Shown here: piece by piece, positions 8,529 to 44,763 of the stretch
How the letters are laid out: the number at the start of each line of letters is the position of its first letter
Numbering within the stretch: position 1 is the stretch's first letter
Source of the DNA: a virus
Taxonomy: Duplodnaviria; Heunggongvirae; Uroviricota; Caudoviricetes
Length of the DNA: 64,000 bases
IMG/VR virus record: IMGVR_UViG_3300036828_000615
Location: 1 to 64,000 of that record
Reading direction: 5' to 3' (one strand)
Translations under genes and position numbers: made by a program
The notes under the pieces: generated by a model
Databases searched by the model: none
What the model was told of the DNA's origin: nothing
Seen by the model: the letters and a program-made list of their open reading frames with translations, nothing else

Positions 8529-8542
8529 CATGAAATCTTTCA

Positions 8543-9449: not shown

Positions 9450-9489
9450 CCCCCGAGTAGCGTCAGACGATCCCACGAGAAGGAGCACG

Positions 9490-13266: not shown

Positions 13267-13285
13267 CGTCCCTACGAGGAGCCCG

Positions 13286-13590: not shown

Positions 13591-13622
13591 TCCCCTGCCC
13601 CCAATGACCAGTATCGCCACAC

Positions 13623-26082: not shown

Positions 26083-28510
26083 GCTGGATCGCGAGCTGGA
26101 CGTAGGTCTGGCCGGGGAACACCTCGCGGAGGTGATATTCAATATGTGGGGCCGTGGGGGGCTGCCAGCAGATGAACTGGATACCGAGCACGCACGCCTG
26201 GATGGCGGCGGCGATGCCTTTGACGGAGATCAGCCGGTCAGTGAGCGGGTTGATCGCGGCCTCGGGAAGCAGCTGCGCCTCCTCGATGTCGATGCCGTGT
26301 CGGTACATGCCGCGCCTCACGTCGTCGTAGGCGTCCCCGTCGAGATTGCCGAGCAGTGCAAGGCAGTTGGCGACGAATGTCTCCTCAAAACCGCCACCAA
26401 GTTCCAGTTCTGTGCAGAGCGTGTACACGTCGCGCATGATTTCCCCGGTCAGGGTGGCGGGCACCCCGGCGTACATGTCGTAGGTGTCGACCAGTTCGCA
26501 CCACTCGTCCCCGAGCAGCGGCAGCCGGAACTGGGCGATCCCTTCACCGTCGGTCGGCGGCCCGCCGTGGAACGTCTTCTCCAGGTGGCGGGACGGGTTC
26601 CCGAACACGTACCCGGCGACATAGTTGGGGCGCAGCAGCGCGAGTCGACCGCCGGGTTCAAACTCCATCCGGACGCGAGACGCCGCCTCGCCACCCTGGC
26701 TGTAGCCGCCGAGGATGACCGGGCGATCGGTGTGGGTCAGGACCCAGTCCACCGCCCAGTCCACACCGATCCTCACCGATTCGGCGTAGCTCACCGGCTT
26801 ACCGAAGCTCCACGGTGCCTGGACTGGGACCTCGTCAGCCACGTCGAGGCAGGCCTGCGCCACGTCGCTGGGGAACCCGACACCCGGTGCCGCCCATGTG
26901 CCGGCGAACGTCAGAATCGCTAATCGCCCAGACCCTCCTCCCCCTCCGGGGTCAGGGGGAAAAGGGGGCACACCACCCGCCAGGACGTTCTTGATGTGCG
27001 CGATGGCGTCGGTGATGCTACGGCCACCCAGCTGCGGCCAGCCGTATCCGTAGCCGTCTTCGCCGACCGGTCCGGCGTTCTGCTCGTAGTCCAGCTTCGC
27101 GTAGTCGAGCGGGGTCTTGGGTGCGGCATACTCAGCGCGCCAGTGCACCGACGACTTGCCCTGCTCCAGCAGATGCAGGATGTCGGACAGCGCGTCCACC
27201 AGGTACAGGTTCTGACCCTGCTCGTTGACACCCAGCTGAGGCCAGCCGGTGCCGTACCCGGTGGCCGGGTCGATGGGTCCGCATTTCTGCTCGTAGTCGA
27301 GTCGGACATAGTCAGGCACCGGTGCCTCCGGGGTGGGGTGGGGCAGGTTGGCGTAGCACGCTGCTTTGGGTGGGATGAGGGTGGCGCACTGGTCGAAGCT
27401 GATCCAGTAGCCGAACGGCTGAAAACCGGAGTCGGCGATCCACACCGCCCGCTGAGCCGGGTTGTCGTCGTAACCGGCGCAGGTGACGTAGTGGTAGATG
27501 GTCCCGCCGCCGTAGCTGGGGGACTGTGACCCTTTGATGCCGACCGGGTAGTTCGCCGGTGGGGCGACCCAGTTCATCACGATCCCGTACCCGGAGTTGA
27601 TGGACCGCAGGATGCCGTCCCACAGCCGGTCCTTCTCGTCTTGGGTGGGTGGGTCGTGGGGGGCGTCGACGCTGGTGTAGTTGGCCTCGGGCAGCCGGGG
27701 GTCCAGGCACCGTTCGATCAGCGCCACATAGTCGGTGCCGCCGGTGTCGGTGCCGCACTCGGCAGCCAGCTGCGATTCGGGGACATAGATACCCCGGATC
27801 GAGAGGCACACCTGAGCCGACGCGGGGCCGCACCAGTAGCCGGTTTCCTGCGGGACGATGTTGTGGTCGTAGTTCAGTACCTTCTCACCCACGAGTGGGA
27901 TGCCTCCTTCGGATGCGGCCTGCTGGTCAAGCAACCCGAGGAGCCGGTCGCCCATCCCCAGGCAGTATTCATATCGCTGCGCCCGGTCCTCCAGGCCGTT
28001 GTAGCCGCCGTTGATGGCGAACGTCGCACCCTCGATATCCCGCGCGTCCGCGTAGTCGTTCATCGGCCGCTGCGTCGTCCAGTACCAGGTCACGCCGTGG
28101 AAGCCGTTGGTGTCGCTGGCCAGCTCCTCGGGCAGGTCCACGAAGAACGTCGGAGTGGGGACCAGTCCCTCGCCGAACGCCCACCCCGAGCACTCGGTGT
28201 AGTTGTACTTGCCGGTGACCATGATCGGCCCGCGTCCGTGGTAGCGCGCGCCGTCGCCGGGGGAGCAGTTGCCGAGGTCGTCGCAGCGGTTTTCCAGGTA
28301 GGCGTAGTTGTCGCCGTCCCAGTCCTGTTCCTCCATGTAGAGCAGGCCCGCCGACTCGTGCCCGGTCTGGGCGCACCACATGGCGATGCGGTCCACAGAG
28401 GTGGCGTCGCATTCGTGCAGGCATTGCGCGGTCGCCGGGGCCAGCTGCGCATAGCGGTCGGGGGTGGTTCCCCACTGCATCGCCTCGCCGAGCAGGTCCG
28501 CGTAGCTCAC
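26042..28510 (-). CDS. multidomain endolysin: GH19 glycosidase, C39-like Cys peptidase, two roughly 45-aa repeats, and a cutinase-like LysB esterase (LysA-LysB fusion)
   Basis: GH19 motifs QTGHESAGLLYMEE and YHGRGPIMVTGKYNY. Peptidase motif ETGYWCGPAS. Repeats LDYEQ..GP...GYG.GWPQLG x2. Linker GGGGGSG. Esterase motif GYSQGG. Confidence 0.85.
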   Translation of the reverse strand: MSYADLLGEAMQWGTTPDRYAQLAPATAQCLHECDATSVDRIAMWCAQTGHESAGLLYMEEQDWDGDNYAYLENRCDDLGNCSPGDGARYHGRGPIMVTGKYNYTECSGWAFGEGLVPTPTFFVDLPEELASDTNGFHGVTWYWTTQRPMNDYADARDIEGATFAINGGYNGLEDRAQRYEYCLGMGDRLLGLLDQQAASEGGIPLVGEKVLNYDHNIVPQETGYWCGPASAQVCLSIRGIYVPESQLAAECGTDTGGTDYVALIERCLDPRLPEANYTSVDAPHDPPTQDEKDRLWDGILRSINSGYGIVMNWVAPPANYPVGIKGSQSPSYGGGTIYHYVTCAGYDDNPAQRAVWIADSGFQPFGYWISFDQCATLIPPKAACYANLPHPTPEAPVPDYVRLDYEQKCGPIDPATGYGTGWPQLGVNEQGQNLYLVDALSDILHLLEQGKSSVHWRAEYAAPKTPLDYAKLDYEQNAGPVGEDGYGYGWPQLGGRSITDAIAHIKNVLAGGVPPFPPDPGGGGGSGRLAILTFAGTWAAPGVGFPSDVAQACLDVADEVPVQAPWSFGKPVSYAESVRIGVDWAVDWVLTHTDRPVILGGYSQGGEAASRVRMEFEPGGRLALLRPNYVAGYVFGNPSRHLEKTFHGGPPTDGEGIAQFRLPLLGDEWCELVDTYDMYAGVPATLTGEIMRDVYTLCTELELGGGFEETFVANCLALLGNLDGDAYDDVRRGMYRHGIDIEEAQLLPEAAINPLTDRLISVKGIAAAIQACVLGIQFICWQPPTAPHIEYHLREVFPGQTYVQLAIQHVNDWAGRRIPTG

Positions 28511-28578: not shown

Positions 28579-29070
28579 TTGTGTTCTGCCACCATGTGGC
28601 CTATGGTCCCAAAGCCTGATCGGCTGGCGTCGCCCGAACCCGAGCCACAAGCTGCCGCGGAAACCATCGACACGCGGCCCCAGGAGGTCGATATCTCCGC
28701 CTACGGCGGGGACACCCTGACGATCCAGATCACCGCGCCGGACACGCTGGTGGCCGGGATGGACTGGAATGCGCAGGTCCGCAAGGACCGCAACCCGACC
28801 ACCCCCGTTGACGCCACCTTCCTGATCACCCCACCCACCGGAGCTGGTGTACCCGCGGCGGTGGTGCTCTCCGCGGTGGATACCGCCCGACTGTCGGGAG
28901 CCGGGGCGATACGGCGGGTTGTCAATCCCACCACCGGCGCCACACAACAGAGTCAGACCTACACCGGGGTTTGGGACTGCCAGATCAGCGATCCCACCAA
29001 CCCGGATCCAGTCATCACCCTGGTGCAGGGCACCATCACACTAGATGCTGACGTCACGCGGTTGCCATGA
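28579..29070 (+). CDS. hypothetical tail-associated protein (start uncertain, 28579 or 28594)
   Basis: First gene of the plus-strand tail-fibre block, divergent from the lysin. Confidence 0.5.
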   Translation: MCSATMWPMVPKPDRLASPEPEPQAAAETIDTRPQEVDISAYGGDTLTIQITAPDTLVAGMDWNAQVRKDRNPTTPVDATFLITPPTGAGVPAAVVLSAVDTARLSGAGAIRRVVNPTTGATQQSQTYTGVWDCQISDPTNPDPVITLVQGTITLDADVTRLP

Positions 29071-29474
29071 CCGAGATCGACGCCGATCAGTTAATCGGCG
29101 AGGTCATTGTCGAGGTTCCCCAGTTCGACATCACCGTCGAAGTGCCCATCCCACAGGTCACCGTCGATATCCCGGCGTACAACGTCGTCATCTCCGGGGG
29201 CGGGCCACCCGGGCCACCCGGACCACCCGGAATGGCCGGACCGCCCGGCACCGGAAATCCTGTTGTCGGAGAAGCACCGTCGGGCGTCAAAAACGGCGTC
29301 AACACCAACTTCGATACCGCGCAGCCCTACCGCACCGGCACCACGGCGGTCTACCGCAACGGCCTGCGCGAGACGCGCGGCGTGGGATACACCGAGACCG
29401 GCGCCAGCCAGATTACGTTCTCGGTAGCACCCCAAGCCGCCGACGACCTGAGCGTTGACTACATCGTCCAGTGA
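29067..29474 (+). CDS. minor tail protein with collagen-like GPPGPPGPPGMAGPPG repeat
   Basis: ATGA overlap. Contains G-P-P triplets. Confidence 0.7.
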   Translation: MTEIDADQLIGEVIVEVPQFDITVEVPIPQVTVDIPAYNVVISGGGPPGPPGPPGMAGPPGTGNPVVGEAPSGVKNGVNTNFDTAQPYRTGTTAVYRNGLRETRGVGYTETGASQITFSVAPQAADDLSVDYIVQ

Positions 29475-29485
29475 AAGGTTGACCC

Positions 29486-31102
29486 ATGACCCAGCAGCAG
29501 ATCGACGGTGGCAAGCAGATACGCTCCGGCACCGTCACCACCACCCAGCTGTCCTCCACCGCCGGGATCACCGACGCGCAGCTCGCCACCTCTTACATCA
29601 AGGCTGACGGCACCCGCGCGTTCACCGGGGAGCAGGCGGGTATCACCCCCACCGCGTCCACGTCGCTGGCCACCAAGGGCTACGTCGACACTGTGGCGCA
29701 GGGCCTGGACACCAAACCGTCCGCGCGGGCCGCCACCGTGACGGAGACGTTGACGATCGCGTCGGGCAGCGTCACGCAGATCGGCGGCACCACCGTCGAT
29801 GGTGTCGCCATCGCCGTCAACGACTACATCCTGATCATGAACGCGCCCGCAGCGACGGGCGCGGCGGGCGGCGCGGGAAACTACACCAGCCAACCGGCGA
29901 ACGGCCTCTACAAGTGCTCGGCCAACACCACCAACCTGACCGTGGCCCGCGCCCCCGAGCAGTCCGGCAGCGAGAACCCGGCCGGGGACTACGTGTTCGT
30001 GGAGAACGGCACGTCGATCACGGCGGGCAGCGGCTACACCGTCGTCGTCCCGTCGTCGGGATCGGGGTTCGTCTACGGCACCAACAACATGCAGTGGACG
30101 ATGTTCTCCGGTGCCGGGGAAGTCACCGTCGACTCGTCGTTGACGAAGACCGGCAATCAGTTGGGCCGCGCCGCCCTGACCGGCGATGTCACCGCCGCTG
30201 CCGGGTCGAACGCCACCACCATCGCCGCCGCCGCCGTGACGCTGGCCAAGATGGCGAACCTGGCCGCCAACAGCGTCATCGGCAACTCCACCGGCTCGGC
30301 GGCCACCCCGACCGCCGTCCCGATGACGGCCTTGTCCACCGCGTCGACGGTCGCTTTCCGCGACGGCAACGGCAACGCCGCGTTCAACAGCCTCATCGAG
30401 ACGGTGCAGAGCATCGCCACCGGCGGTACCACCACCACGCTGACCGTCGCGTCTCCCGGCCTGACCCAGTTCACCGGCACCCAGAACCAGACCCTGGTGC
30501 TGCCCAACGCCACCACCCTGGTCAACGGTCAATCGTTCTGGATCACCAACCGCTCCACCGGCACCATCACCGTCAACATGAACGGCGGCAGCCTGCTCAT
30601 CACGATGGCCGCGTCCTCGCAGCTGCTGGCCACCGTCACCAACAACGGCACCACCGCCGGGACGTGGGACGCCGCGTACAGCATCACCAACGCGGGCGCG
30701 GGCGGCGGCACGGTCACCAGCGTCTCGGTCGCCTCGGCCAACGGGTTCGCGGGTACGGTGGCCACAGCCACCACCACCCCCGCCATCACCGTGCAGACCA
30801 GCATCACCGGCCTGCTGAAAGGCAACGGCACCGCCGTCAGCGCGGCCAGCAACACCGCCGGTGCCGATTACGTGGCCGCCGCGAACTTCATCACCCGCGA
30901 GACCCCGTCCGGCACGGTCAACGGCTCCAACACCGCGTTTACCCTGGCGAACACCCCGGTGCCTGGGAGCGAAACCGTGATGCTCAACGGTCTAGTCCAA
31001 GAACCAGGTGCGGGGAACGACTACACAATTTCGGGGGCTGCCATCACCTACCTGACCGCCCCGTTGGCCACCGATAAATTGAGGGTCAGCTACCTCAAGT
31101 GA
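29486..31102 (+). CDS. tail fibre protein (538 aa, Thr/Gly/Ala-rich)
   Basis: RBS gaaaggttgacccATG. Low-complexity beta-rich fibre-like sequence. Confidence 0.75.
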   Translation: MTQQQIDGGKQIRSGTVTTTQLSSTAGITDAQLATSYIKADGTRAFTGEQAGITPTASTSLATKGYVDTVAQGLDTKPSARAATVTETLTIASGSVTQIGGTTVDGVAIAVNDYILIMNAPAATGAAGGAGNYTSQPANGLYKCSANTTNLTVARAPEQSGSENPAGDYVFVENGTSITAGSGYTVVVPSSGSGFVYGTNNMQWTMFSGAGEVTVDSSLTKTGNQLGRAALTGDVTAAAGSNATTIAAAAVTLAKMANLAANSVIGNSTGSAATPTAVPMTALSTASTVAFRDGNGNAAFNSLIETVQSIATGGTTTTLTVASPGLTQFTGTQNQTLVLPNATTLVNGQSFWITNRSTGTITVNMNGGSLLITMAASSQLLATVTNNGTTAGTWDAAYSITNAGAGGGTVTSVSVASANGFAGTVATATTTPAITVQTSITGLLKGNGTAVSAASNTAGADYVAAANFITRETPSGTVNGSNTAFTLANTPVPGSETVMLNGLVQEPGAGNDYTISGAAITYLTAPLATDKLRVSYLK

Positions 31103-31292
31103 TGACATTGACTTACCCCAGGTTTCAGCGGCAGAGTGACAGCGCACCTCTCACACCAGCCGTGATCAACCCTGCGCTCTGTCAGGTCATGGTAGAAACG
31201 CTGCCCCGTGGGAGGCAGTGGAGCTTCCGTGAGAAACCCCAATGTCCTTGTACGAGTCATCTGATAACTATATCTAAACGGGGCGTTGACTG

Positions 31293-31775
31293 ATGGCTGT
31301 CACCAGGGTTGCCGACCGGCAGGTCGTCGAAAGCATCGACCTGACCTCTGAGGTCGCCAACGTGCTGCCGATGGCCAACGGCGGCACCGGGGTCTCCGCT
31401 GCGGGCACCGCAGGCTTCGTGCTGACCTCCACCGGAACCGCCTGGGCCAGTAAGGCCGATGCGCCGAACGTCACGTCGACCGCGTCCTCGGCCACCCCGT
31501 CACTGACCGCGTGCGGCAACGATCAGTTGAACATCACCGCGCTGGCGGTCAACCTCACCGGCATCACCGTGACCGGCCCGGCGGTGGGATACAAGCTGAT
31601 CGTGCGGGTGAAGGACAACGGCACGTCGAGAACCTTCGCACCCGGCTCGTCGTTCCAGAGCTCCGATAACGCCGCAATGATCAGCGCCACCACGGTCGGC
31701 AAGACACACATCATGGGCTTCATCTACGACGAGGTGGCCGCCAAGTACGTCTGCGTCGCGGTCAACAGTTACTGA
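31293..31775 (+). CDS. minor tail / fibre protein (160 aa)
   Basis: Motif LPMANGGTGVSAAGTAG, typical of fibre N-termini. Confidence 0.6.
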   Translation: MAVTRVADRQVVESIDLTSEVANVLPMANGGTGVSAAGTAGFVLTSTGTAWASKADAPNVTSTASSATPSLTACGNDQLNITALAVNLTGITVTGPAVGYKLIVRVKDNGTSRTFAPGSSFQSSDNAAMISATTVGKTHIMGFIYDEVAAKYVCVAVNSY

Positions 31776-33442
31776 TGGCCACCGCTCAGTCGCGCGGCAC
31801 CAGTGTTGTCTCCACCAGCGGCACAACATGGGCCACCACCGCTAACGCCTGGGACGGCGCGGTAGGCACGAACCCAGCCACCTACGCCACCTTCACTAAT
31901 GCGGCCTCTGGTGGCGTCGGCACCATCGTTATCGGCGGGTACACGTTTGCCGGCCCCGTGATGGGCGCGACGATCAGCAGCGTCAGCGCCGCGATACGAA
32001 GTTTGGTCGCTACTACTTCGCGTTGGACTTCAGTTACGGTGCAATTACAGGATTCTACCGGCACCGCCATCGGCTCGGCGGCGACCGCGACACTGAGTAC
32101 GTCGGCGCACACGGACACATTGACGGTGGGCACACCGACCGACCTGCAGGTGTTCAATGGTCTGCGGGTGCTGGTGACAGCCACCCACAGCGGAACGGTA
32201 AGCTCCGTCTTCTCGCTCGACCAAGTCGACCTCACCGTCACCTACACGGCACCGCCGAAGGTGTCCACCTTCAGCGACAACTTCGCCACCCAGGACACCA
32301 CGAAATGGACGGGGTGGGGCGCCAACGCTTCGGTAGTAAATCAGCAATTGTCGCTGGTCGCTGCCCCCTCTAGTCCGGGGCAGATAACCAGTAACGCGGT
32401 TTACGATCTGACCGAGTCGTCTATTTACATCCGGGCTCTTCAGTTCGCCCAGTGTGCTACCAGCAACTACGTGCCGTTCCGGCTCGCTTCCCCCAACAAT
32501 GGTTACGGCGACTATATGGAGTGGGGCTACATTCCCAGCCCCACTAATGGCAACGCGATCGCAATTTCTGTGTACGTCAACGGAACCCAGGTCTATGTCA
32601 GCGCCTTCTACACCTACGACCCCGTCACCTTCGCGTGGCTGCGTTTTCGTCACACCGGGGGCGTGGTCTATTTCGATGCCAGCCCGGACTGTCTGACCTG
32701 GACGAACTGCGGCAGTTGGACCGTCAGCGGCACCACCGGCATGACCAATATGTATGTCGCGCTGCTCGGCGGACAGACCACCGGAACCATTACTGTTCCC
32801 AACACCATCTGGGACAACCTCAACACCCCGCCGGGTCCGAAGATCTCCACCTTCACCGACAACTTCGCGACCCAGGACGTCTCCAAGTGGGCGGGGTGGG
32901 GCTCCAACGCCTCCGTGTCCGGTGGGCAACTGGTGCTGCTCACGGCCGCTTCCGGGAGCGGCATCGTCACGTCCGTTGCCGTATATGACCTCACCGAGTC
33001 GGCGGTTTATGTCCAGGTTGTCCAGTTCGGGCAGGCTGCCACCACCCTGTACGCCCCTTTCCGGCTCACCAGTACCAATGGCCTGAATTATGTGGAGTGG
33101 GCTCGAAACGACAGTGGTGGCGCCCTGTACATGTCCGCCAGCGTGTTCATCAACAACAGCAACATCGTGTCGAACTTCTACGCGTACAACTCCACCAGTT
33201 TCGCGTGGCTGCGTATTCGACACACCGCGAACGTGATCTATTTCGATGCCAGCCCAGACGGTGTCACCTGGACGAACTACATGACCTGGACGAACACCAT
33301 CTTGGATATCACCCAGCTGGAGCTGGAGGTGTTCGGCGGCGCCAGCAGCGGCACTATCACCGTGAACAACACCATCTGGGACAACCTCAACGTCCCGCCC
33401 GCCCCGGCGGCGTCGCCGAGCGGATTCTTCGCACTGTTCTAA
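31775..33442 (+). CDS. tail protein with two tandem roughly 180-aa lectin-like domains
   Basis: Internal duplication: STFSDNFATQDTTKWTGWGANASV... versus STFTDNFATQDVSKWAGWGSNASV... Confidence 0.7.
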   Translation: MATAQSRGTSVVSTSGTTWATTANAWDGAVGTNPATYATFTNAASGGVGTIVIGGYTFAGPVMGATISSVSAAIRSLVATTSRWTSVTVQLQDSTGTAIGSAATATLSTSAHTDTLTVGTPTDLQVFNGLRVLVTATHSGTVSSVFSLDQVDLTVTYTAPPKVSTFSDNFATQDTTKWTGWGANASVVNQQLSLVAAPSSPGQITSNAVYDLTESSIYIRALQFAQCATSNYVPFRLASPNNGYGDYMEWGYIPSPTNGNAIAISVYVNGTQVYVSAFYTYDPVTFAWLRFRHTGGVVYFDASPDCLTWTNCGSWTVSGTTGMTNMYVALLGGQTTGTITVPNTIWDNLNTPPGPKISTFTDNFATQDVSKWAGWGSNASVSGGQLVLLTAASGSGIVTSVAVYDLTESAVYVQVVQFGQAATTLYAPFRLTSTNGLNYVEWARNDSGGALYMSASVFINNSNIVSNFYAYNSTSFAWLRIRHTANVIYFDASPDGVTWTNYMTWTNTILDITQLELEVFGGASSGTITVNNTIWDNLNVPPAPAASPSGFFALF

Positions 33443-33452
33443 GGAGGCAACG

Positions 33453-34016
33453 ATGCACCAGAGTGTGATGCAGTTCGTCTTCCGCACCCTGACCGCGCAG
33501 AACGTGGCGGCCACCAGGGTGCTGGAGGTGGGCAGCTACAACGTCAACGGGACCGTGCGCGAGTACGTCACCTCACTGGGACCCGAGGTCTACCTGGGGG
33601 TGGACGCGGCCGAGGGACCCGACGTGGACCAGGTGGTCAACTGCGAGCAACTGGTGAGGACCGTCGGCAAGGACTGGGATGTGGTGGTGTCCACCGAGAT
33701 GCTGGAGCACGTGCAGGACTGGTGGACCTGCCTGTCTCAGCTGGTGTACGCGGTCGCCCCGGGCGGGCTGCTGCTGGTCACCACCCGCGGCCCCGGCTTC
33801 CCGTATCACCCGTACCCCACCGACAACTGGCGCTTCACCGTCGAGCTGCTCGCCGATGCGCTGGACCGGATGATGCTGACGCGGGTGGTGTGTGAGTCCG
33901 ACCCCGAGGCGCCGGGCGTGTTCCTGCTGGCGCGTAAACCCCGCGACTGGTGCCTGACGCCGCGGCAGCTGGCAATGAACCTTGAGGGCCTGCACGCGCA
34001 GGCTATGACCGGATGA
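33453..34016 (+). CDS. class I SAM-dependent methyltransferase
   Basis: RBS taaggaggcaacgATG. Motifs VLEVGSYNVNG and VVVSTEMLEHV. Confidence 0.7.
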   Translation: MHQSVMQFVFRTLTAQNVAATRVLEVGSYNVNGTVREYVTSLGPEVYLGVDAAEGPDVDQVVNCEQLVRTVGKDWDVVVSTEMLEHVQDWWTCLSQLVYAVAPGGLLLVTTRGPGFPYHPYPTDNWRFTVELLADALDRMMLTRVVCESDPEAPGVFLLARKPRDWCLTPRQLAMNLEGLHAQAMTG

Positions 34017-34705
34017 AGCTGCGCCTGGTCTGCGCCACCCGCGGCTCCAAAGCCGCGTTCATGGCCGGGACGCATCTGGGCCGGTGCCTGCGTAACTTCC
34101 TGTGGCGCCAGGACTTCGAGGTCCAACTGTTCGCCGACAACACTCGCGGCCTACCCGTCGTCTACAACAAGGCCCTCGATGACGCCAGAGACGATCCGGC
34201 CACCCTGGTGTTCCTGCACGACGACGTGTACCTGGCCGACTACTTCTGGCCCGAGCGCCTCGCCGACGCGCTCATCAAGTTCGATGTCGTCGGGCTCGCC
34301 GGGCACACCCAGCGCGCGCTGGGCCAGACCACCTGGTTCGTCCCCGACGACGGACCGGCCGGTCTGCTGTCGGGCATCGTGGCACACGGGGAGGACCTGG
34401 GTGCGCAGATCAGCCTGTACGGCGCCGCGGGCAAGGAGTGCAAGCTAATGGACGGCCTGTTCCTGGCCGCCGAGTCGGCGACCCTGATCGAGCACGGCAT
34501 CCGGTTCGAGGAGGAGCTGGACTTCCACTTCTACGACCTGGACTTCTGCCGCCAGGTGGAGAAGGCCGGCCTGTCGATGGGCACCTGGTCCATCTCCGTC
34601 ATCCACCGCAGCGGCGGCCTGACCGAACCGGACGGCCGGTGGAACCGCAACCGCCAGATCTACCAGCGCAAATGGGGAGAGCCCGATGTCCTGCAAAGCT
34701 GGTGA
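34013..34705 (+). CDS. GT-A-type glycosyltransferase
   Basis: ATGA overlap. DxD-like FLHDDVYLAD. Confidence 0.55.
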   Translation: MKLRLVCATRGSKAAFMAGTHLGRCLRNFLWRQDFEVQLFADNTRGLPVVYNKALDDARDDPATLVFLHDDVYLADYFWPERLADALIKFDVVGLAGHTQRALGQTTWFVPDDGPAGLLSGIVAHGEDLGAQISLYGAAGKECKLMDGLFLAAESATLIEHGIRFEEELDFHFYDLDFCRQVEKAGLSMGTWSISVIHRSGGLTEPDGRWNRNRQIYQRKWGEPDVLQSW

Positions 34706-34706
34706 C

Positions 34707-35099
34707 TCACGTCGCCACGGCGGTAGCCGGGGGCTGCCCGGATAGGGGACGGCCCGCCGCGATGAGCGTCGACACCGGGACGGGCGGCGGCCCGCCGGCC
34801 GTCGGCGCCGAGCCGCCACCGCCCATGAGCTGGGTCAGCACCTGTTGCTGCATCTGGGGCTGCATGGCGCTGGCGAGCAGGGTTGCCAGCGCCGTCGCCA
34901 TCCTGGCCAGGATCTGCTTCTGTTCGGCAACCTCACGCTCCAGCGCCTCGATGCGCTCGGCGTGACCGGGTGTATGAGCCTTGCCGTTGGCATTCACCGC
35001 GTCCCTGGCCGCCTGTCGGCGTGTGGCCCGGTTGGGGGGCTCGCTGGGGATCTCGCCCATCTCGTTAATGTCGTCGAGCTCGTTAATGTCGTCGTCCAT
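34707..35099 (-). CDS. hypothetical protein (130 aa, acidic N-terminus)
   Basis: RBS caaaggagatgaacacATG. Confidence 0.55.
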   Translation of the reverse strand: MDDDINELDDINEMGEIPSEPPNRATRRQAARDAVNANGKAHTPGHAERIEALEREVAEQKQILARMATALATLLASAMQPQMQQQVLTQLMGGGGSAPTAGGPPPVPVSTLIAAGRPLSGQPPATAVAT

Positions 35100-35103
35100 G
35101 TGT

Positions 35104-35760
35104 TCATCTCCTTTGTGAGAAGTCCTCGTTGGTGGGCGAGGCACTCTGGTTGTTCTCAATCGTGATCAGCGACTCCTTGAGGTGCCCGCACACCAGGCTG
35201 GAGTCGATCCACACTCCGAAGCCCTGCTCGCGTGCCCGTTTGCAGAACGACAGGTCGTGGCTGATCAGCGGGGGGACGGCTGTGAACATGGGGCCGTCGT
35301 CCCACTTCTCGAACACGCGGCGGTGGATGCTGGTGAACCCGAACCCGACCGAGTCGACCGGGTAGGCGGCGGGCCGCAGCGCCATCTCGCGCACCGCCTC
35401 CGGCGTCAGCGGCCGGTATCCGGCCTGGTCGCTGCATTCCATCCACGCCATCGCGTGATGCGGCGGCCGGTGCCCGAAGTACAGCGGGCCGACGATGTCG
35501 AAGTCGTCGGGGTAGTCGGCGATGGTGCGGAACGCCTGGGGTGGTGCGAGCATGTCGTGCTCGACGATGACCAGGCGGTCCCACTCGCCGAAGTTGCTCA
35601 TCGCGTCGTCGCGCAGGTTCTCCATCGCCTCCTCGACGTAGACGCCGTTGGTGGCGACCCAGCCGATGATGGGTGACTGGTCCATACCCAGCCAGCCGGT
35701 GAAGAACGCCGCCGAAAGATTCTTGTAGAGCGGGAATGCCACGATCAGTTTGCCGGTCAT
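35104..35760 (-). CDS. GT2-like glycosyltransferase (218 aa)
   Basis: ATGA overlap. Motifs LIVAFPLYKN and DRLVIVEHD. Confidence 0.5.
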   Translation of the reverse strand: MTGKLIVAFPLYKNLSAAFFTGWLGMDQSPIIGWVATNGVYVEEAMENLRDDAMSNFGEWDRLVIVEHDMLAPPQAFRTIADYPDDFDIVGPLYFGHRPPHHAMAWMECSDQAGYRPLTPEAVREMALRPAAYPVDSVGFGFTSIHRRVFEKWDDGPMFTAVPPLISHDLSFCKRAREQGFGVWIDSSLVCGHLKESLITIENNQSASPTNEDFSQRR

Positions 35761-36083
35761 GGGGTCGCCTTGGTCAGGTCGTCCCACGACGACACCTCGT
35801 CCCAGGTGGTGTAGTGCCCGCCGTGCTCGATGGTCATCACCCCCCAATCGTGGCTGTTGTCGGCGTCGACGAGATCGGTGCGTACCGCGACGGACAAAGT
35901 GTCCGGGTTCTGTTTGACCGCGCCAGCAATGTACTCCGGTGGTGTCGGCGTTGCCACGGGCGGCGGCGGGGCCGGCATATCCGCTGGCACCTGCGGCATT
36001 GTCGGCGCGGGTTCAACGGGCGGATCGACGTGTTTGGGCACCATCAACGCGGAGATGTCCGGCGGCTCGGCGGCTTGAGACAT
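35757..36083 (-). CDS. Pro-rich hypothetical protein (108 aa)
   Basis: RBS gaaaggtagtcATG. Confidence 0.5.
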   Translation of the reverse strand: MSQAAEPPDISALMVPKHVDPPVEPAPTMPQVPADMPAPPPPVATPTPPEYIAGAVKQNPDTLSVAVRTDLVDADNSHDWGVMTIEHGGHYTTWDEVSSWDDLTKATP

Positions 36084-36099
36084 GACTACCTTTCTGTGC

Positions 36100-36420
36100 T
36101 TAGGCCGGGCTGAAAATCTGCTCATATTCGGTGGCGTCGTAGCGGCGGGCGTTCTCGCCGTCGAACACCACGTAGTCGCCGATGAACACCTGCTGCGCCT
36201 GACCGTTCTTGTAGAGGCTCAGCAGGTAGGCAAGGTCGCCGGGATGCTCCTCGTCGGGGTAGGACAGCCACTCCACCCGGTAGCCGCCCGCGGGCAGTGT
36301 GGCCATCAGGTCGTACACGTCCAGGATGGACGGCGCCGTGGGGTCGTCGATATTGGGCGGGTTGACGTTGATGAGCCACGACGTGTGTGGCGTTGACGGC
36401 ACGACTTGGTTGCTTCCCAT
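36100..36420 (-). CDS. hypothetical protein (106 aa)
   Basis: RBS aagggaaagagATG. Confidence 0.6.
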   Translation of the reverse strand: MGSNQVVPSTPHTSWLINVNPPNIDDPTAPSILDVYDLMATLPAGGYRVEWLSYPDEEHPGDLAYLLSLYKNGQAQQVFIGDYVVFDGENARRYDATEYEQIFSPA

Positions 36421-36429: not shown

Positions 36430-39400
36430 TTACATGTAGGCGCGGATCCAGACTCCACCATCGCCACCCTTACCGCCAGGACCTGCGGCCAGCGCGTTGA
36501 AGTAACCCCAGATACCACCGCCGCCACCGCCGCCCGGAGCGTTCCCGTTGGCGCTGGCGGCGGGTTGTGCTCCACCGCCGTAGTAGATCCCGGCGTAACC
36601 GTCGGCACCCGTCAAGGGCTGGTTACCGGGTGAGAGCCCGGTAGTGGAGCCTGCTGCCGAGGAGCCGCCATTGGCGGTGATGGTGGTGTGCCCGGTCATG
36701 GCCACCTGCGATTGCGCGCCCGCACTGCCGCTGGGAAAGCCACCGCCGCCAGCACCGCCTATCCCGCCCGCGCCGATGGTGACGGTGAAGCTGGTGGTGC
36801 TGGTGGGGATGTCAACGCCATAGACGAGGGTCACCGGCGTCGCCCAGATTCCGGCACCACCGCCGACACCGTTGGACGGACCGCCGCCGCCCTGCCCGCC
36901 CATGCCCGCGCCGACCACCAGGATGTCGAAGTGGTTTCCCGCTTTCATCCACGACGGGACGCTGTAGGTGTAGGAGCCCGCCGCCGCGTACTGCGTCACA
37001 AGTGGTGCATAGGTCGTGGCCGCGGCCGCGCCGGACAGCGCCATCCATGGCACGGTCTGCGACCAGGTGGGGCTGGGGATGCTGCTGGGCGGCGCGGCCG
37101 GTGCCGGGTTGAGCGGGACGGCGACCGAGCCCCAGGACGCCGCCGACGAGAGCGTCGCCGAGATGGTGACGCTCGCCGCCCCCGCCGCGTCACCCATCAC
37201 ACACGAGCCGTAGCTGCTGGCACCGCTGGCGACGTTTTGGCGCTGAGTTTGGTTGTAGGCGCTCAACGTCAGAGACACGTTTGCCTGCACCACGCCGAAC
37301 ATCTGGACGATGCGACCACCTGTCGCACCGCTGGTCACGGTGTGTGACGGCGCTGCCGTTGACCCGTTTGCTGTTTGCGCCGTGCCGAACGACGCGACGT
37401 TCGTGTACGTGTCGACACCGACGCTGAGGTAGGCGGCGTCACTGGCGAGCGGGTTCGGTGTTGCGGTGGTGGTAATGGTCTGTGCCCCGGTGGGCGGGTT
37501 GATCAGCCCATACAGGGCCACGGTAGAGCAGACCCCGCCGACGGGACCGTACTGATACACACCGAGCTGGGCGAGGGTTGTGCTGCCGATCTTGCAGGAA
37601 ATCGTCGGTGCGCTAGTGGTGTTTGCTGCCGTGACGACGGTGACTCCGACGACAAGCGCGGTCGCGGTGGCGGCGATGGTGACATTGGTGTTCTGGGTGG
37701 CTGCCCCCGCGACCGCAACGTTGGTTCCAGCCGGGGCAGCGTCGATGGCGATGGTCCCGGCGCTGATGGCCCGCGTGACGGCGAGTTGCTTCGGGTACGC
37801 GGTGGGGTGGCCCGCGCTGGGCAGCCAGGCGTGGTTGATCCCGGCGAGGCTATAGGTGCCGGTGCCCGCGATGACCACCTCCATGGCGTAGTAGGTGTTC
37901 TGCTGCGCGGTGAGGTAGTTGGCAGCCGGGATCGCGAGGTTGACCCAGGTCGGCGACGATCCACCGAGAGTGATGTTGCCCACGACATTAGGTGACGCGT
38001 ACACCAGGGTCAGCGCCCCGGTGGAGCCGTTCATCGAGTAAATGTTGTAGTAGACGCCGGTGATGGTGGCCGGACCGTAACCCAGCCACTCCACGCTCTG
38101 CTTGACCCCGGCATCGGGGGTGCCGATGATTCCCATCGCGCTCTGGGCGGCGGTGACCGAGACGGTGGTGGCCGACGACGAGCCGCTAATGCTGGACAGC
38201 GGAAACACCGAATCGGCGGTGGGGTCGATCGCGTTGTAGGACGGCTTGGTCACCGCCCGGTTGTTCAAGCTGGTCTGGTTGGTGCCGGTGGTACCCGCGA
38301 CCGAGTTGGTGGGCGGCGTGGTCTGATTGCCGAAGTTGAACCCGAGGTAACCCATCGCCTGGTTGAACACCGACGCAAGCTGGCCGACCGCGTTGCCGCT
38401 GCCGGTACCACCCGTGACGCCCTGGATGGTCTTGTCGACAGTGGACTGAAACGCCGTGGTCACGTCGGTCAGCACGCCACCGATAGGGCTCTGCACATTA
38501 AGCCCAGGGATGAAGCTCCCCAGGGTGGGCTGGCTGTAGATCCTGGTCATCATGTCCTGCAGCCCGGCGAACAGGGAGCTGACCGGGTTGCCGGTGTTGG
38601 TACTACTGGCTGGGGTGCCGTTGATCGGGATGGCTATGCCGCCCCACAGGCTCGACGTGGTGCAGGAGAAGTTGACGCTGGCCGCGCCGGGTGCGTCGCC
38701 GATCACCAGCGGAAGCCCGGCCCCGGCGGTGAACGGCTGGTTGGACCGCTGCGTCTGATTGAACCCGGTGAGGTTGGTCGCGTATCCGCCGAACGCCGCC
38801 ACCACCCGGTCGTAGGAATTGGTGCCGCTCACCGTCAGGGACGGCGTGGTGTTGGTTGAACTGAAGGCGGTGACGGGAGTGCCGAACGACACCGCGCTGC
38901 TGAAGGACTCGGAGTTGATGGACATCGCTACAGAGTTCGATGCCGACGCATAGATCTGCTGGACTCCGGTGGGTGCGTTCTGCAGGACGAACGCAAAGAG
39001 GTAGAGGACGGGCGCCGAAGAATAGCTCACAGAGGCGACTTGCGTCATCAGCGGGCCGGACGACCCACCGATCCTCACGGTGAGAGTGCCTGGCGTATCG
39101 TACGTCGACACGAACACCACGGCGTTCGGGCCGGTGATGGTGTGGTTCTCGGTGACGACCGTGCTACTTAATTGGACACCGGCACCGACCGCGTCGAAAA
39201 CCACCGGAATAGCCGGTCTGCTCGCCCCGTACAGACCTTGGCTGAACAGGTCGGTGAGTGACTGGGCGTGGGTTTCCTCCACGCAGCGGACGTCGTCTAA
39301 GTAGTAGGTTTGGGCACCGGCATTCTGGCCGGAGAATCCGACTATGCCGCACGCTATATCGTATCCAGGGGGAATCTGCACCCACCCGGACATCTTCATC

Positions 39401-42400
39401 CACCCGGTTGTGGAAATCGCCGTAAAATTGACCGACTGCGCCCAGATGCTCGTTTGGACAGATCCGCCGGAGGCGTAATTAACGACGAAAACTCCGAGAT
39501 AGGCGCCTCCAGTCGTTGTGGTGTTGGTGGATTTGGCCCTGATGTACAGCTCGATGTTGAACCATTGTCCCGGCTGGCATCTCGTCATCGCGTCATAAAG
39601 CTGTGTTGTGACGGGGGTGGTGGGCGCAAAGAACACAACGTCGTACTGGGTGGATACGTCCGTGGAGGTCTGGACGGAATACGAATGAGTCCCGCTGTGT
39701 GCCTGGGCGGTCGTGTAGCCGAACGCCGCATCGACAGGGGTTCCGTAGCTGCCGGTGAAGCGCGTGACCGTGGTGTCCTCGAAGTCCGGGGAGAGCACCA
39801 GGTTGGTTCCGGAAGCCCTTGCGGCCTGCCACAGCGTCTGCGGCAGCAAGCCCGGCGACATCGCGTTGGCGAATGTGCCGGTGATGATCTTGGTGGCGTC
39901 CAGGCCGGGGATCCAGTTGGCGTTGGTGATGGCGTCGGTCAGCCTGCTGCCGCTCAAGCCACCCAGCCATGTCGAGGTCAGGGCCGGGATGATGTTCTGG
40001 TCGGTGATGGCCCCGGTCAGCCGGGTGCTATGGATGGTGTTGGTCCACGCGGAGGTGAGGGTTGGTATCCAGTTCTGGTTGGTGATGGCGCTGGACAGTT
40101 GGCTGCCCGCCAATGTCGCGGTGGTGATGGCGTTACGCAGCAACCCGCCGTCGACAGTGTTCACCCACGCCGACGTGAGGGCGGGGATGAAGTTCTGATT
40201 CGTGATCGCGGACGTGAGCTGGCTGCCCGCGATGCCGACGGCGACGTTGATGGCACCGGTCAGTAGGCTCCCATGGATGGTTCCGCCCCAGGTAGAGGTG
40301 AGCGCCGGTATCCAGTTCTGATTGGTGATGGCCGAGCCCAGTAGGTTGCCGGCGATCGTCTTGCCCCATGCCGAGGTCAAGGCCGGGATGACCGTCTGAT
40401 CGGTGATGGCACCGACGAGCTTGCTGGCGTGGAAGCTGTTGACCCAGGTGCTGGTCAGCGCCGGAATGATGTTTTGATCCGTGATGGCACCCAGCAGTTT
40501 CGCGCCGCTCAAGGTGCCCACCCACGTCGAGGTGAGCGCGGGAATGACGTTCTGGTCGGTGATCGCCCCGAACAGTTTGGACGCGTGAAGGGAGTTGACC
40601 CACGTGCTGGTCAGGGCCGGGATCACGTTCTGGTCCGTGATCGCGCCGACAAGCTTGGAGGCGTGGAATGTGTTGATCCAGGTCGAGGTCAGCGCGGGAA
40701 TGATGTTCTGATCGGTGATAGCCCCGGTCAGCCGCCAGCCGTGAATGGTTCCCGTCCAGGCGCTTGTCAGGGCCGGGATGATGTTCTGATCTGTGATGAG
40801 GCCCAGCAGCTTGCTGCCACTGAGAGTGCCCAGCCAGGTGGACGTCAAGGCCGGGATTACGTTCTGGTCGGTGATCGCGCCGACGAGCTTGGAAGCGTGA
40901 AAACTGTTGATCCATGTGCTGGTCAGCGCCGGGATGATGTTCTGGTCGGTGATGGCCCCAGTGAGCCGCCAGCCGTGGATGGTGCCGGTCCAGGCCGAGG
41001 TGAGCGCGGGGATGATGTTCTGATCGGTGATGAGACCGAGCAGCTTGCTGCCACTGAGGGTTCCGAGCCATGTCGACGTCAGCGCCGGTATGACGTTTTG
41101 GTCAGTGATGGCTCCGAACAACTTGGAGGCGTGTAGCGAGTTCACCCAGGTTGATGTCAGGGCGGGGATCACGTTCTGATCCGTGATCGCCCCGACGAGC
41201 TTGGAGGCGTGGAAGCTGTTGATCCACGTCGAGGTCAGCGCCGGAATGATGTTTTGATCGGTAATGGCCCCGGTCAAGCGCCACCCGTGGATCGTGCCCA
41301 GCCACGCGGACGTGAGAGCCGGGATCACGTTCTGATCCGTGATGAGACCCAGCAGCTTGCTGCCGCTCAGAGTGCCCAGCCACGTGCTGGTCAACGCGGG
41401 GATGACATTCTGATCGGTGATCGCACCGAACAGCTTGGAGGCGTGCAACGAGTTGACCCAGGTCGAGGTAAGCGCGGGAATGATGTTCTGATCGGTGATA
41501 GCCCCGGTTAGTCGCCACCCATGAATGGTCCCCAGCCACGCAGAGGTGAGGCTGGGGATGATGTTCTGGTCCGTGATCAGGCCGAACAGCTTGGACGAGT
41601 GAATCGAGTTGACCCATGTGCTGGTCAGGGCCGGGATGATGTTCTGATCGGTGATGGCGCCCAGGAGCCTGCTGCCGTGCAACGTCCCGAGCCATGAGGA
41701 CGTCAGGGCCGGGATGTGCAGCTGGTCGATGAGCTTGGTGATCGGGTCCATCGGGGCCAGCAGGTTGGCCGGATGAAGCATGTTGGTGATGAACGTGTTG
41801 ATCGCGGTCGTCACATCGAACGCGACATCGGAAAGGGTTGGCAGGCCCAGCATCGCGGTCAGGTTGCTGAAGTAAACGCTGGGGTCCAGCATGTTGTTGA
41901 CGAAGTTGTTGATCGCGTTCTCGATATCGAACGAGACATCTGCCAACGTGGGCAAGCCCAGCATCTCGGTGAGATTGTGGAAGAACGTGTCCAGCTGGGT
42001 GACGTTGAGGATGCCGCCCAGGCCGACCGAGTTGAGGATGGCCTGCAGGATGTCCTGCTGCGCCGAGGTGTCGATCACCGCGATGTCGTCGATGTAGACG
42101 ATGTCGCCGGTGGGGATGTCGCTCTCGAAGCGCAGGACGAAGTCGGCACTGTCGTAGTTGTAGGTGCTGGGCACGGTGACCTTGCCGCGCATCCAGGTCC
42201 ACTGGCCCGGTGTGGGCATCGTGATACGGGTGGCGCTCACCTCGGAGCTGGGGTCGGAGCCGCTGGACTCGGTGGCGATCATCACCAGGTCGAGATGCCC
42301 GGTGCCGGCGGTGGTGGTGGCCGTGTCGGGCCAGACGAACGCCTCGACGTCGAAGGTCTGCCCGGACTTCACGTACTGGGTCAGCGGACCCACCTGGTTG

Positions 42401-43254: not shown

Positions 43255-44763
43255 TCAGACCTCGGCGAGCCGCCGGGTCGCCGCAGCGGGCGCGAACGTG
43301 CTCGGTTCGCTGACCGGGGTGACCTGTACGAACACCTGTGCGTCGGTCGGGTTGAACTGGTATAAACCTATAGCCCCATCGTTATAGAGATTGACGTAGA
43401 TCACGGCCGCGGTGTTGAGCGGCACCACCGCCATGCCGTTGGTCGGGTTCAGCGCATCCGACGGGCTGTTCGGCGTGGAGTAGTGCGGCATGATGTTGAC
43501 CTCGCCCAGCGTGTTACCGAAGCCCCGCGCGATGAGCTGGCCGGCGGTCGGGTCGTTGAGCAGGATCTCGCAGCCGACGGTCAGCGGATTGGGTGTCAGC
43601 TCCACTCCGAACGCACCGACGTGGCCCCAGCAGATCGGGGTGTAGGGGAACGGCTGCGGCGGGATCTGGAACGAACCGATCGCCGCGCGCTGGCTGATGC
43701 CCGAGAACGAGGTGAAGGCGTTCTCGGGCATCGAGTACGGCGAGGGGATCAGCTGGCTGATGCTCACCGGCACCCACAGCGGATAGGTGACCAGGGCGCC
43801 GCCCGAAGACGGCGGGCTGGCGGAAACGCCGGCCCCGCCGGTGTCGGTGAAGTTCGTCGTCGAGCCGCTCGACACCGCGCCCGCCCGGGTGGTGTAGGTG
43901 CCCGGGGTGGTGGTGCGGTAGATGTGATAACCCGTCGCCGAGGGGACGGGGTTCCACGAGAGCACTCCCGAGCCGTTGGTTCCCGACGTGGTGATCGACA
44001 CCGCCGCGCCGGGGATGGACTCGCCGGCCGGGCTGATGGTGGTCACCACGTACTCGTAGGTGTTGGCCGCCAGCGAGCCTCCGGTCGAGGAGGCCACCGC
44101 CGTGAGCCCCGAGGGCGGTGCCAGTCCCAGGCTCACCGTGCGTCCGGTGTAGCCCAGCACGTCGCCGGGTTCGGGCGGGTTGGTCGTCAGGTCCACATCC
44201 GGGCAGCTGTAGAGCGCGGCGGACGGACCGACCGGGCCCAGCGGGATCGCCAGGTCCATGTGCCAGGTGGGTTCCAGCGGAGTGCCGCCGGTGATGACAT
44301 CACTGGAGGAATCCGGCGGGATCACCGCGACGGTGGGGGTGATGATCGGGCACGGCCCAGGCGGGCCGGGGCTGCCCAGCATGACCCGGCGCCAGCTCGA
44401 TCCGTACCAGACGTAGGCGCTCGCGCCGATGATGGCGCCGCTGGCCGCCACGTCGTCCATCAGCCAGAACTTGCCGATGTCGGCGACGGTGTTGCCCAGC
44501 GTCTCGGGCAGCTCGCTGGGGGTGTCGATGGTCATGTCGGTCTGCAGCCGCAGCGCGAACGCGGCCGGGCCGGGCGGCCCCTGACCGCCCACCACCGCGG
44601 GCATCACCATCGCGCCGATGTCGGAGTAGATCTCGTAGGTCGCCCCGAACGGGGAGGTGGACTCCGGTGGGATGACCGACCCGAACAGGTAGGTGCCGAC
44701 CAGGTAGGACGCCAGGTAACTCTCGTCGGCGCCGGCCGGGACGGTGGGGACAGACGTGGTCAT
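43255..44763 (-). CDS. minor tail protein (502 aa), paralogue of the next gene
   Basis: Shares IPPQPFPYTPICWGHVGAFGVELTPNPLTVGCEILLNDP...GEVNIMPHYST with gp44774. Contains GPPGP motifs. Confidence 0.8.
   Translation of the reverse strand: MTTSVPTVPAGADESYLASYLVGTYLFGSVIPPESTSPFGATYEIYSDIGAMVMPAVVGGQGPPGPAAFALRLQTDMTIDTPSELPETLGNTVADIGKFWLMDDVAASGAIIGASAYVWYGSSWRRVMLGSPGPPGPCPIITPTVAVIPPDSSSDVITGGTPLEPTWHMDLAIPLGPVGPSAALYSCPDVDLTTNPPEPGDVLGYTGRTVSLGLAPPSGLTAVASSTGGSLAANTYEYVVTTISPAGESIPGAAVSITTSGTNGSGVLSWNPVPSATGYHIYRTTTPGTYTTRAGAVSSGSTTNFTDTGGAGVSASPPSSGGALVTYPLWVPVSISQLIPSPYSMPENAFTSFSGISQRAAIGSFQIPPQPFPYTPICWGHVGAFGVELTPNPLTVGCEILLNDPTAGQLIARGFGNTLGEVNIMPHYSTPNSPSDALNPTNGMAVVPLNTAAVIYVNLYNDGAIGLYQFNPTDAQVFVQVTPVSEPSTFAPAAATRRLAEV

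Follow-up and report, generated by a model that had tools for sequence, protein, structure and literature searches.

Phage-encoded glycosyltransferases (GTs) glycosylate the capsid and the tail tube in Che8, Corndog and Myrna, and antibody recognition is reduced (Freeman et al, 2023, Cell Host Microbe 31:1216, as summarized in PMC12363180 and PMC11600133). Experimental demonstration of virion glycosylation by phage enzymes is confined to a few mycobacteriophages, and the reduced antibody recognition matters for phage therapy. Cassettes of GT and methyltransferase (MTase) genes in the structural regions of actinobacteriophage genomes have been known since 2013, and their function since 2023; in Cluster J mycobacteriophages an insertion of 8–10 GT, MTase and kinase genes separates the capsid gene from the connector genes (Pope et al, 2013; PMC3706429). 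Here we analyse a related locus in the IMG/VR record IMGVR_UViG_3300036828_000615 of an uncultivated phage, of which positions 1–64,000, the whole stretch of 64,000 nucleotides that was studied, are referred to as the window. An earlier note on this DNA had read a MTase gene and two GT genes among tail-fibre genes, on both strands, as a candidate virion glycosylation cassette. As in Che8 and Corndog, soluble phage GTs and an S-adenosylmethionine (SAM)-dependent methyltransferase are found in or near the structural genes of an actinobacteriophage; whereas the Che8 genes are co-directional at the genome end and the Corndog genes lie upstream of the capsid gene, the genes of the window are split over two convergent operons. 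On balance we favour the reading that the segment 33443–35771 is an optional, horizontally exchanged virion-glycosylation cassette of an uncultivated siphovirus. The segment and the genes in and around it are as follows.

33443–35771, no strand assigned: accessory segment holding the MTase, GT#1, s130 and GT#2 genes; absent or replaced in a near-identical phage contig
33453–34016, plus strand: MTase, a class I SAM-dependent methyltransferase of 187 residues
34013–34705, plus strand: GT#1, a GT-A fold glycosyltransferase of 230 residues, Glyco_tranf_2_5 family
34707–35099, minus strand: s130, called as a gene on Logan contig L002; closes the tail operon and is not cassette-specific
35104–35760, minus strand: GT#2, a GT-A fold glycosyltransferase of 218 residues from a largely phage-borne family
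35757–36083, minus strand: s108, a gene call; 18% proline, 4-nt overlap with the start of GT#2, not specific to the cassette
36100–36420, minus strand: s106, a gene call; the next gene after that of the giant minor tail protein

All six genes in 33453–36420 show coding character, with a GC content at third codon positions (GC3) of 0.78–0.91, and the convergent two-strand layout described earlier was confirmed. The GC3 of the three enzyme genes (0.86–0.91) is in line with that of the genome. By their positions, the GT and MTase genes are co-located with virion structural genes at the ends of the fibre and tail operons. They are packed tightly with the fibre and tail genes, with 4-nt overlaps and a Shine–Dalgarno sequence directly after the stop codon of the fibre-like gene fib555, and no promoter or terminator signals of their own were seen for the three enzyme genes. 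Contrary to the earlier description of GT#2 as starting the minus-strand block, the tail operon closes with the genes for GT#2 and the small proteins, which follow the giant gene.

The accessory character of the segment emerged from a blastn comparison with a near-identical phage contig, IMG/VR IMGVR_UViG_3300036785_000484 (hereafter L099). The two sequences are 88–96% identical in nucleotides across the lysin gene, the five plus-strand fibre genes, s106 and the giant tail protein gene. The final 83 nt of fib555, ending with the stop codon at window position 33442, are the same in both (100% identity), and similarity then ends; it resumes at window positions 35772–35951 (81%, the C-terminal half of s108) and again from 36100 (91%). 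Hidden Markov models (HMMs) of the three enzyme families found nothing in L099 even at an E-value of 10, and L099 was absent from the collection-wide scans for all three families. Because L099 has the same flanks without all three enzymes, the ~2.3 kb that carries exactly these three enzymes is, judged from the alignment of the two contigs, an accessory and exchangeable block at the convergent junction. The cassette does not extend to the small proline-rich and acidic proteins, which had been proposed as its partners: the enzyme-less L099 retains counterparts of s130 (51% identity) and of s108 (80%, C-terminal half), in the order s106, s130-like, s108-like, and its s106 is 92% identical. Architecturally, s130 is acidic at its N-terminus, coiled-coil-like in the centre and rich in Pro and Gly at its C-terminus; it gave only weak family hits, and s106 had no family match.

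Profile searches identified all three enzymes, as the earlier note had supposed from motifs, and structure models supported the GT-A fold of both GTs. A lack of GT and MTase profile hits, which the note had set as a refuting outcome, did not occur. The MTase matches Pfam Methyltransf_23 (E 5e-9, 36.5 bits against a cutoff of 27), with Methyltransf_11 and Methyltransf_12 also matching, and phrog_32762, annotated as SAM-dependent methyltransferase (E 1.4e-14). A GGAGG motif, placed immediately behind the stop codon of fib555, precedes the ATG of the gene (position 33453) by 5 nt. In the family alignment E20, G22, N27 and G28 (LEVGSYNVNG), D46 (GVD46) and EMLEH (in STEMLEH) are invariant, and PGG is also conserved, such that the class I SAM-binding motifs are present. 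Relatives occur in viral contigs (at least 199, with a GC content of 44–73%, mostly above 53%) and in diverse metagenome-assembled genomes. In one viral locus (L096) the gene order is terminase, portal, protease, capsid, GT-B, methyltransferase (64% identical to that of the window), connectors and tail, and a second locus (L097) is similar. Among 124 genes lying no more than two genes away from MTase relatives in 31 viral loci, the commonest Pfam families are further methyltransferases (Methyltransf_24, RMNT_CmcI and Methyltransf_3), of which RMNT_CmcI is a rhamnosyl O-methyltransferase; GT-B, GT2, phage capsid, prohead protease and sugar epimerase/dehydratase genes are also common. Because the family is fused to GT domains (see below) and neighbours GT, RMNT_CmcI, Methyltransf_3 and sugar-nucleotide enzyme genes, the acceptor of the MTase is probably a sugar hydroxyl, making it a sugar O-methyltransferase.

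The gene for GT#1 shares 4 nt with the end of the MTase gene, and its product matches Pfam Glyco_tranf_2_5 (PF13712) with an E-value of 4.5e-8 (33.5 bits, cutoff 27). An AlphaFold2 (AF2) model with a mean pLDDT of 92.8 shows a single GT-A domain, for which the best Foldseek match in the PDB is majastridin with uridine diphosphate (UDP; 2qgi_A, E 7e-11, TM-score 0.70); the next matches, polypeptide N-acetylgalactosaminyltransferases (ppGalNAc-Ts), WrtF and TarS, all have the GT-A fold as well. The DXD-type motif reads LVFLH69-D70-D71, and H69, D70 and D71 are invariant in 36 homologues. Majastridin, ORF6 of the Rhodobacter blasticus ATPase operon (PDB 2qgi/2nxv), resembles GT#1 in being a UDP-binding GT-A domain of similar size and differs in sequence (18% identity, a marginal match at E 0.39); its own acceptor is unknown.

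The closest relatives of GT#1, ~50% identical, are found in Paraburkholderia and other Proteobacteria. Their genes adjoin those for tetratricopeptide repeat (TPR)-containing GT41 (OGT-like) proteins, the flagellar genes fliE-I and a two-partner secretion (TPS) exoprotein, and lie near sugar aminotransferase, epimerase and methyltransferase genes; some adjoin polysaccharide-export, GtrA-like and acyltransferase genes. The GT41/TPR class consists of cytoplasmic enzymes that glycosylate flagellins, pilins and adhesins (PMC7591256, PMC9306852, PMC3012730). Islands built around such enzymes (FlmG, Ogt and HMW1C, acting on flagellins, pilins and TPS adhesins) follow the same logic as proposed here, in that soluble enzymes act on filament proteins before assembly; they differ in that no GT41/TPR enzyme is present in the window, GT#1 is not a characterized member of such a pathway and some of the contexts are polysaccharide-like. 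No homologue of GT#1 was found by tblastn in 50,697 isolate phage genomes. A reading of GT#1 as unprecedented in phages, based on this empty search and one weak IMG/VR match, was withdrawn when an alignment-based scan of viral contigs recovered at least 207 genes of the family, in sequences with a GC content of 0.25–0.58.

The second glycosyltransferase has a different ancestry. GT#2, whose start was taken from the gene call on a Logan contig (the longest open reading frame reaches 35847), matches phrog_12406, annotated as glycosyltransferase, with an E-value of 6.5e-58, and had no hit in Pfam. A family profile built from 13 homologues (profile A2) hits a single solved structure by sequence, A197 of the crenarchaeal virus STIV (PDB 2c0n_A, E 5.9e-7). 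The DXD-type motif RLVIV-E67-H68-D69, in which E67 and D69 are invariant, aligns to LDEDV of A197, so that EHD stands opposite D-E-D. Foldseek comparison of the AF2 model (mean pLDDT 82.8) likewise placed A197 at the top, together with mimivirus R699, LH3/ColGalT1 and ppGalNAc-T2 (E 1.5e-8 to 1e-6). As a model for GT#2, this viral GT-A enzyme is nonetheless distant: the two are 16% identical, A197 belongs to an archaeal virus, and its acceptor is likewise unproven. On the evidence of these profiles and models, GT#1 and GT#2 are two unrelated GT-A glycosyltransferases. The matches to LH3/ColGalT1 and R699, together with the collagen-like gene coll135 in the window, suggested a collagen-type hydroxylysine glycosylation by GT#2; this was rejected because coll135 contains only ~6 G-X-Y triplets without lysine, no hydroxylase is present and GT-A folds all resemble one another.

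The distribution of the GT#2 family ties it to virion structural genes. Seventy-nine IMG/VR loci carry the family, the closer ones within structural modules: the homologue follows the major head gene in two of these loci (L015, L021) and in Cluster J, precedes the tail sheath gene in another (L011), and in L020, whose major tail protein is 67% identical to that of the window, sits between head–tail adaptor genes beside fib538-like genes. In L019 and L013 it comes after the giant tail protein gene and a fib538-like gene, and the relative's major tail protein is 71% identical. Homologues of the fibre-like proteins of the window (fib538, coll135, fib555 or segments of the giant protein) are neighbours of GT#2 homologues in six of ~13 distinct places. 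A search for the family motifs in 185,579 representative bacterial and archaeal genomes found no (prophage) copy.

Evidence that the enzymes work together was sought beyond the window. An HMM search of 1.84 billion representative proteins returned 58 members of the GT#2 family at E ≤1e-30, and a class I MTase domain was present in eight of the ten long members that were scanned. In two of these proteins, P0135 and P0144, a MTase of the window type (54% and 50% identical, respectively; N-terminal in P0135) is naturally fused to a GT#2-type domain (C-terminal in P0135). Moreover, on a 35-kb contig (L009; ENA NODE_4990) a 54% identical MTase lies among five GT#2 paralogues (2435–14586) plus another GT. 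Because of these fusions and this adjacency, the MTase type is, as far as gene and domain arrangements reveal, coupled to the GT#2 type. The unity of the cassette across both strands, which had been proposed from the gene order, thus gained support from the joint absence of the enzymes in L099, the MTase–GT#2 fusions and the adjacency in L009, with the small proteins falling away as members. The number of GT#2 paralogues in L009 represents an unusually large expansion of the family.

Placed beside the characterized systems, the window cassette shows a similar composition built from other parts. Blastp, tblastn and HMM comparisons with Che8 gp108–110 and Corndog gp35–38 gave nothing better than E 0.1, and when the window enzymes were compared with Che8 gp107–110, Corndog gp35–38 and Minerva gp14–23 the sole match was that of GT#2 to Minerva gp14. 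GT–MTase fusions occur on both sides: Che8 gp108 combines a GT with a Corndog gp35-like MTase, and P0135 combines a MTase with a GT#2-type domain. The substrates may differ, since they are the capsid and tail tube in Che8 and Corndog and the candidates here are fibres. The best reading, by analogy, is that the window cassette is a functional analogue of the Che8 and Corndog systems assembled from other GT-A and MTase lineages and not an orthologous system.

The relationship to Cluster J is closer. GT#2 is 45% identical to Minerva gp14 and to its Cluster J relatives and is a true homologue of Minerva gp14/Thibault gp11 (E 6e-93 against profile A2), and in both cases GTs and methyltransferases stand together in structural gene regions. 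The Minerva cassette opens with gp14 and includes counterparts of Corndog gp36 (gp18, 46% identical) and Che8 gp109 (gp19, 70% identical). The Cluster J cassettes are larger, co-directional, adjoin the capsid gene and hold orthologues of the Che8 and Corndog GTs, none of which is true of the window cassette; in addition, the Minerva MTase gp16 is unrelated to that of the window, and Cluster J lacks a GT#1 homologue. The likeness to mycobacteriophage gene sets put forward in the earlier note stands for the placement of GT and MTase genes beside structural genes and for the Cluster J homologue of GT#2, and fails for the enzymes of Che8 and Corndog.

According to the model that we favour, transcription of the fibre operon (plus strand) and of the tail operon (minus strand) would, late in infection, run on into the cassette genes at the end of each. 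The two soluble cytoplasmic GT-A enzymes would then use host nucleotide sugars to place short O-linked glycans on surface-exposed virion proteins, with GT#2 as the A197/ppGalNAc-T-like partner and GT#1, of the Glyco_tranf_2_5 family, as the majastridin-like partner in building the glycan, and the class I SAM methyltransferase would O-methylate sugars of that glycan. Under this scheme a virion protein is the presumed acceptor, the donor sugars and the division of the GTs into an initiating and an extending enzyme are presumptive, and methylation is taken to occur on the sugar. The finished glycan might alter the virion surface, for example through shielding, stability or adsorption. The genes considered as sources of the acceptor are listed here, with the combined serine and threonine content (S+T) of their products.

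28579–29070, plus strand: p163, fibre-like; S+T 18%
29067–29474, plus strand: coll135, collagen-like (GPPGPPGPPGMAGPPGTG); S+T 13%
29486–31102, plus strand: fib538, fibre-like; S+T 26%
31293–31775, plus strand: p160, fibre-like; S+T 23%
31775–33442, plus strand: fib555, fibre-like; S+T 25%
36430–43251, minus strand: giant minor tail protein of 2273 residues with a Gly_rich_2 C-terminus; S+T 22%; upstream of GT#2 in the same operon

The plus-strand block (28579–34705) consists of these five fibre-like genes followed by the MTase and GT#1; on one side it diverges from the lysin gene (minus strand, 26042–28510), and on the other it runs towards the end of the tail operon. Matches in the fibre block were to DUF5907 and, weakly, to tail-fibre PHROGs, and fib555 matched no Pfam family. 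The expectation that the fibre proteins would be rich in serine and threonine was borne out, with 26% in fib538, 25% in fib555 and 23% in p160 compared with 14% in the major tail protein. Homologues of fib538, coll135 and fib555 adjoin GT#2 homologues in five loci (L009, L019, L020, L021 and L026). Because the S+T content of fib538, p160 and fib555 is high (23–26%) and GT#2 homologues recur beside homologous fibre genes, the fibre-like proteins are plausible acceptors; speculatively, we would rank them as the leading candidates, ahead of the capsid or the tail tube.

A further candidate is the giant minor tail protein. It contains ~17 tandem repeats of 78 nt (26 residues) at 40373–41716 (...ITDQNIIPALTSTW...) and an internal domain of ~200 residues that occurs twice (residues ~1350–1545 and 1941–2041), and in L015 and L021 homologues of these two segments lie immediately downstream of GT#2 homologues. 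In L019 the giant protein gene is followed by a fib538-like gene and then by GT#2. A narrower proposal, that the cassette modifies fibre-like proteins (fib538, fib555, p160 and possibly the 2273-residue tail protein) and not the capsid or tail tube, is possible, and we advance it only tentatively. If it is correct, the cassette would be a swappable 'fibre glyco-coat' module located exactly where two convergent structural operons meet, and the known substrates of phage virion glycosylation would extend from the capsid and tail tube to host-recognition structures. The module would combine three unrelated lineages, namely an A197-like phage GT, a phage MTase that is elsewhere fused to that GT, and GT#1, the nearest relatives of which would be found in proteobacterial flagellin and adhesin glycosylation islands. 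The window phage and the enzyme-less L099 would then form a natural pair for testing the effect of fibre glycosylation on host range and stability.

Some features of the candidate proteins were noted in passing. An internal duplication of a ~180-residue domain (..STFSDNFATQDxxKWxGWGxNASV..) makes up fib555, and homologues of its N-terminal 160 residues lie 3 kb from a GT#2 homologue in two loci (L026, L027). The proteins coll135 and fib538 have a common C-terminal domain of ~65 residues, and the same pairing is seen in L020, where a collagen-like gene, a fib538-like gene and GT#2 stand between two head–tail adaptor genes (2729–9874). Judging from this gene order, 'fibres' of the L020 type may be anchored to the neck or head and not to the tail tip.

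A number of findings weigh against a virion-glycosylation cassette. No glycan has been observed, and the acceptor is entirely inferred. The presence/absence comparison relies on a single relative, L099 being the only close relative found in IMG/VR, and the insertion is not clean, as the order of s130 and s108 differs between the two contigs. Neither the window-type MTase nor GT#1 occurs in any of the 79 IMG/VR loci with the GT#2 family, and the loci of the GT#1 family hold neither GT#2 nor the window-type MTase, the exact trio having been seen here only. The enzymes are dissimilar to those of Che8 and Corndog, as described above, and the major tail protein (14% S+T) has no obvious Ser/Thr-rich C-terminal tail. 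Finally, the category given to the GT#2 family in PHROGs is 'moron, auxiliary metabolic gene and host takeover', and the neighbours of GT#1-family genes in viral contigs of low and middle GC content (67 proteins in IMG/VR loci) are mostly primase/helicase, DnaB-like helicase, UvsX and DNA repair proteins and not structural ones. These last two points each suggest a rival explanation.

The PHROGs class would suit enzymes that modify a host glycoconjugate (an envelope glycolipid, arabinogalactan, a methylated polysaccharide or a surface protein) and lead to receptor masking (superinfection exclusion) or help release. Dispensability of the block in L099, the bacterial GT#1 relatives near polysaccharide-export, GtrA-like and acyltransferase genes, and a lysin gene only one block away would all fit such a role. 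Serotype-converting or envelope-modifying phage systems of the GtrABC type, however, pair a membrane-bound GT with a flippase in a lysogeny-proximal moron, whereas the window enzymes sit in late structural operons. A check for the features of such systems found no hydrophobic segment in the three enzymes (maximum KD19 ≤1.5) and no GtrA-like hit, and no flippase or GtrA/GtrC-type partner lies nearby. The packing of the genes into the ends of the late fibre and tail operons without signals of their own, and the consistent location of GT#2 and MTase relatives inside head, neck or tail modules, also speak against modification of the host, which we regard as unlikely.

We attach a similarly low probability to the idea that the three genes do not form one pathway, with GT#2, with or without the MTase, acting on the virion and GT#1 serving a separate and possibly early, DNA-linked function such as glycosylation of modified bases. 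The replication and repair genes that commonly neighbour viral members of the GT#1 family would be explained, as would the lack of a GT#1 homologue in isolate phages and the fact that GT#1 is not seen elsewhere with GT#2 or the window-type MTase. However, those replication-adjacent viral relatives are only 29–45% identical to GT#1 and come from phages of 25–58% GC. In the window GT#1 follows the fibre genes and overlaps the MTase gene, and L099 has lost it along with the other two enzymes. In two loci with the MTase (L125, L127) a distant gene of the GT#1 family lies directly upstream of it. Among the annotated genes of the left arm, where annotation is partial, no hydroxymethylase or other base-modification gene of the kind associated with phage DNA glycosyltransferases was present.

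That the block is decaying or neutral cargo, left by recombination at the operon junction and now without function, would account for its absence from L099 and for the rearranged junction, but is very improbable given that the family-invariant residues and motifs are all intact, GC3 (0.86–0.91) matches the genome, and the reading frames are intact with coupled starts and a strong Shine–Dalgarno sequence.

The virion-glycosylation reading proposed in the earlier note is thus partly supported and remains a prediction. What the locus offers is a well-supported annotation and no new mechanism; it adds enzyme families from outside the characterized set in similar cassettes, an example of a cassette that can act as a small dispensable indel between near-identical phages, and a GT#2 family that tracks fibre-like genes across different genome architectures. 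Useful among the results are the plus/minus pair with L099, the MTase–GT#2 fusions, the recurrent linkage of GT#2 with fibre genes and the exclusion of the small proteins from the cassette.

At the convergent junction itself, the GT#1 stop codon (34703–34705) and the s130 stop codon (34707–34709) are separated by a spacer of 1 nt. A bidirectional terminator at this position was considered and rejected, as the spacer is 1 nt long, no hairpin was found at the junction, and terminator-like sites in the region did not exceed the expectation from shuffled sequence. In L099 the fib555 stop and the stop of the s108-like gene abut likewise. The possibility that the plus-strand block is invertible or mobile was also rejected, there being no meaningful inverted repeats flanking 28.5–34.7 kb.

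The window as a whole is a segment of a tailed-phage genome with a GC content of ~65%, and megablast of the region against the 50,697 isolate phage genomes gave no near-identical match. Its minus strand carries a canonical late operon of the siphovirus type, transcribed leftwards, with the capsid gene lying outside the window.

63347–63778, minus strand: head–tail adaptor
62814–63404, minus strand: neck protein
62269–62817, minus strand: tail terminator
60729–61328, minus strand: major tail protein; S+T 14%
60157–60732, minus strand: tail assembly chaperone
51624–59765, minus strand: tape measure protein of 2713 residues
50452–51627, 47925–49868, 46630–47328, 44774–46633 and 43255–44763, minus strand: minor tail proteins
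47318–47878, minus strand: HNH endonuclease inserted in the tail operon, among the minor tail protein genes
36430–43251, minus strand: continuation of the operon by gene calls, with the giant minor tail protein gene and then s106, s108, GT#2 and s130, where it ends

The length of the tape measure protein (2713 residues) implies an unusually long tail. The closest matches of the tail proteins, ~49% identical, are in Mycobacterium abscessus prophages and M. smegmatis phages, and the lysin carries a fused LysB-like domain. Because of these tail-protein matches and this domain, the host, as predicted from sequence, is probably a mycolic-acid actinobacterium. The lysin has 822 residues, with a GH19 domain at 37–148, a Peptidase_C39_2 domain at 219–361 and a C-terminal part (529–819) that matches the endolysin family phrog_102 and has a GYSQGG serine-esterase-like motif; from this domain make-up it looks like a LysA–LysB fusion in a single polypeptide. 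Residues 200–819 are 94% identical in L099.

Three paralogous HNH endonuclease genes (phrog_1492) are found in the window, at 4250–5014 and 8773–9162 on the plus strand and at 47318–47878 on the minus strand, and HNH genes also lie near GT#2 homologues in L009, L011 and L013. The gene at 6215–8014 (minus strand) encodes a protein of 599 residues that matches phrog_850, annotated as RNA-binding protein (E 1e-83), a homologue of which adjoins a gene of the GT#1 family in another locus (L180).

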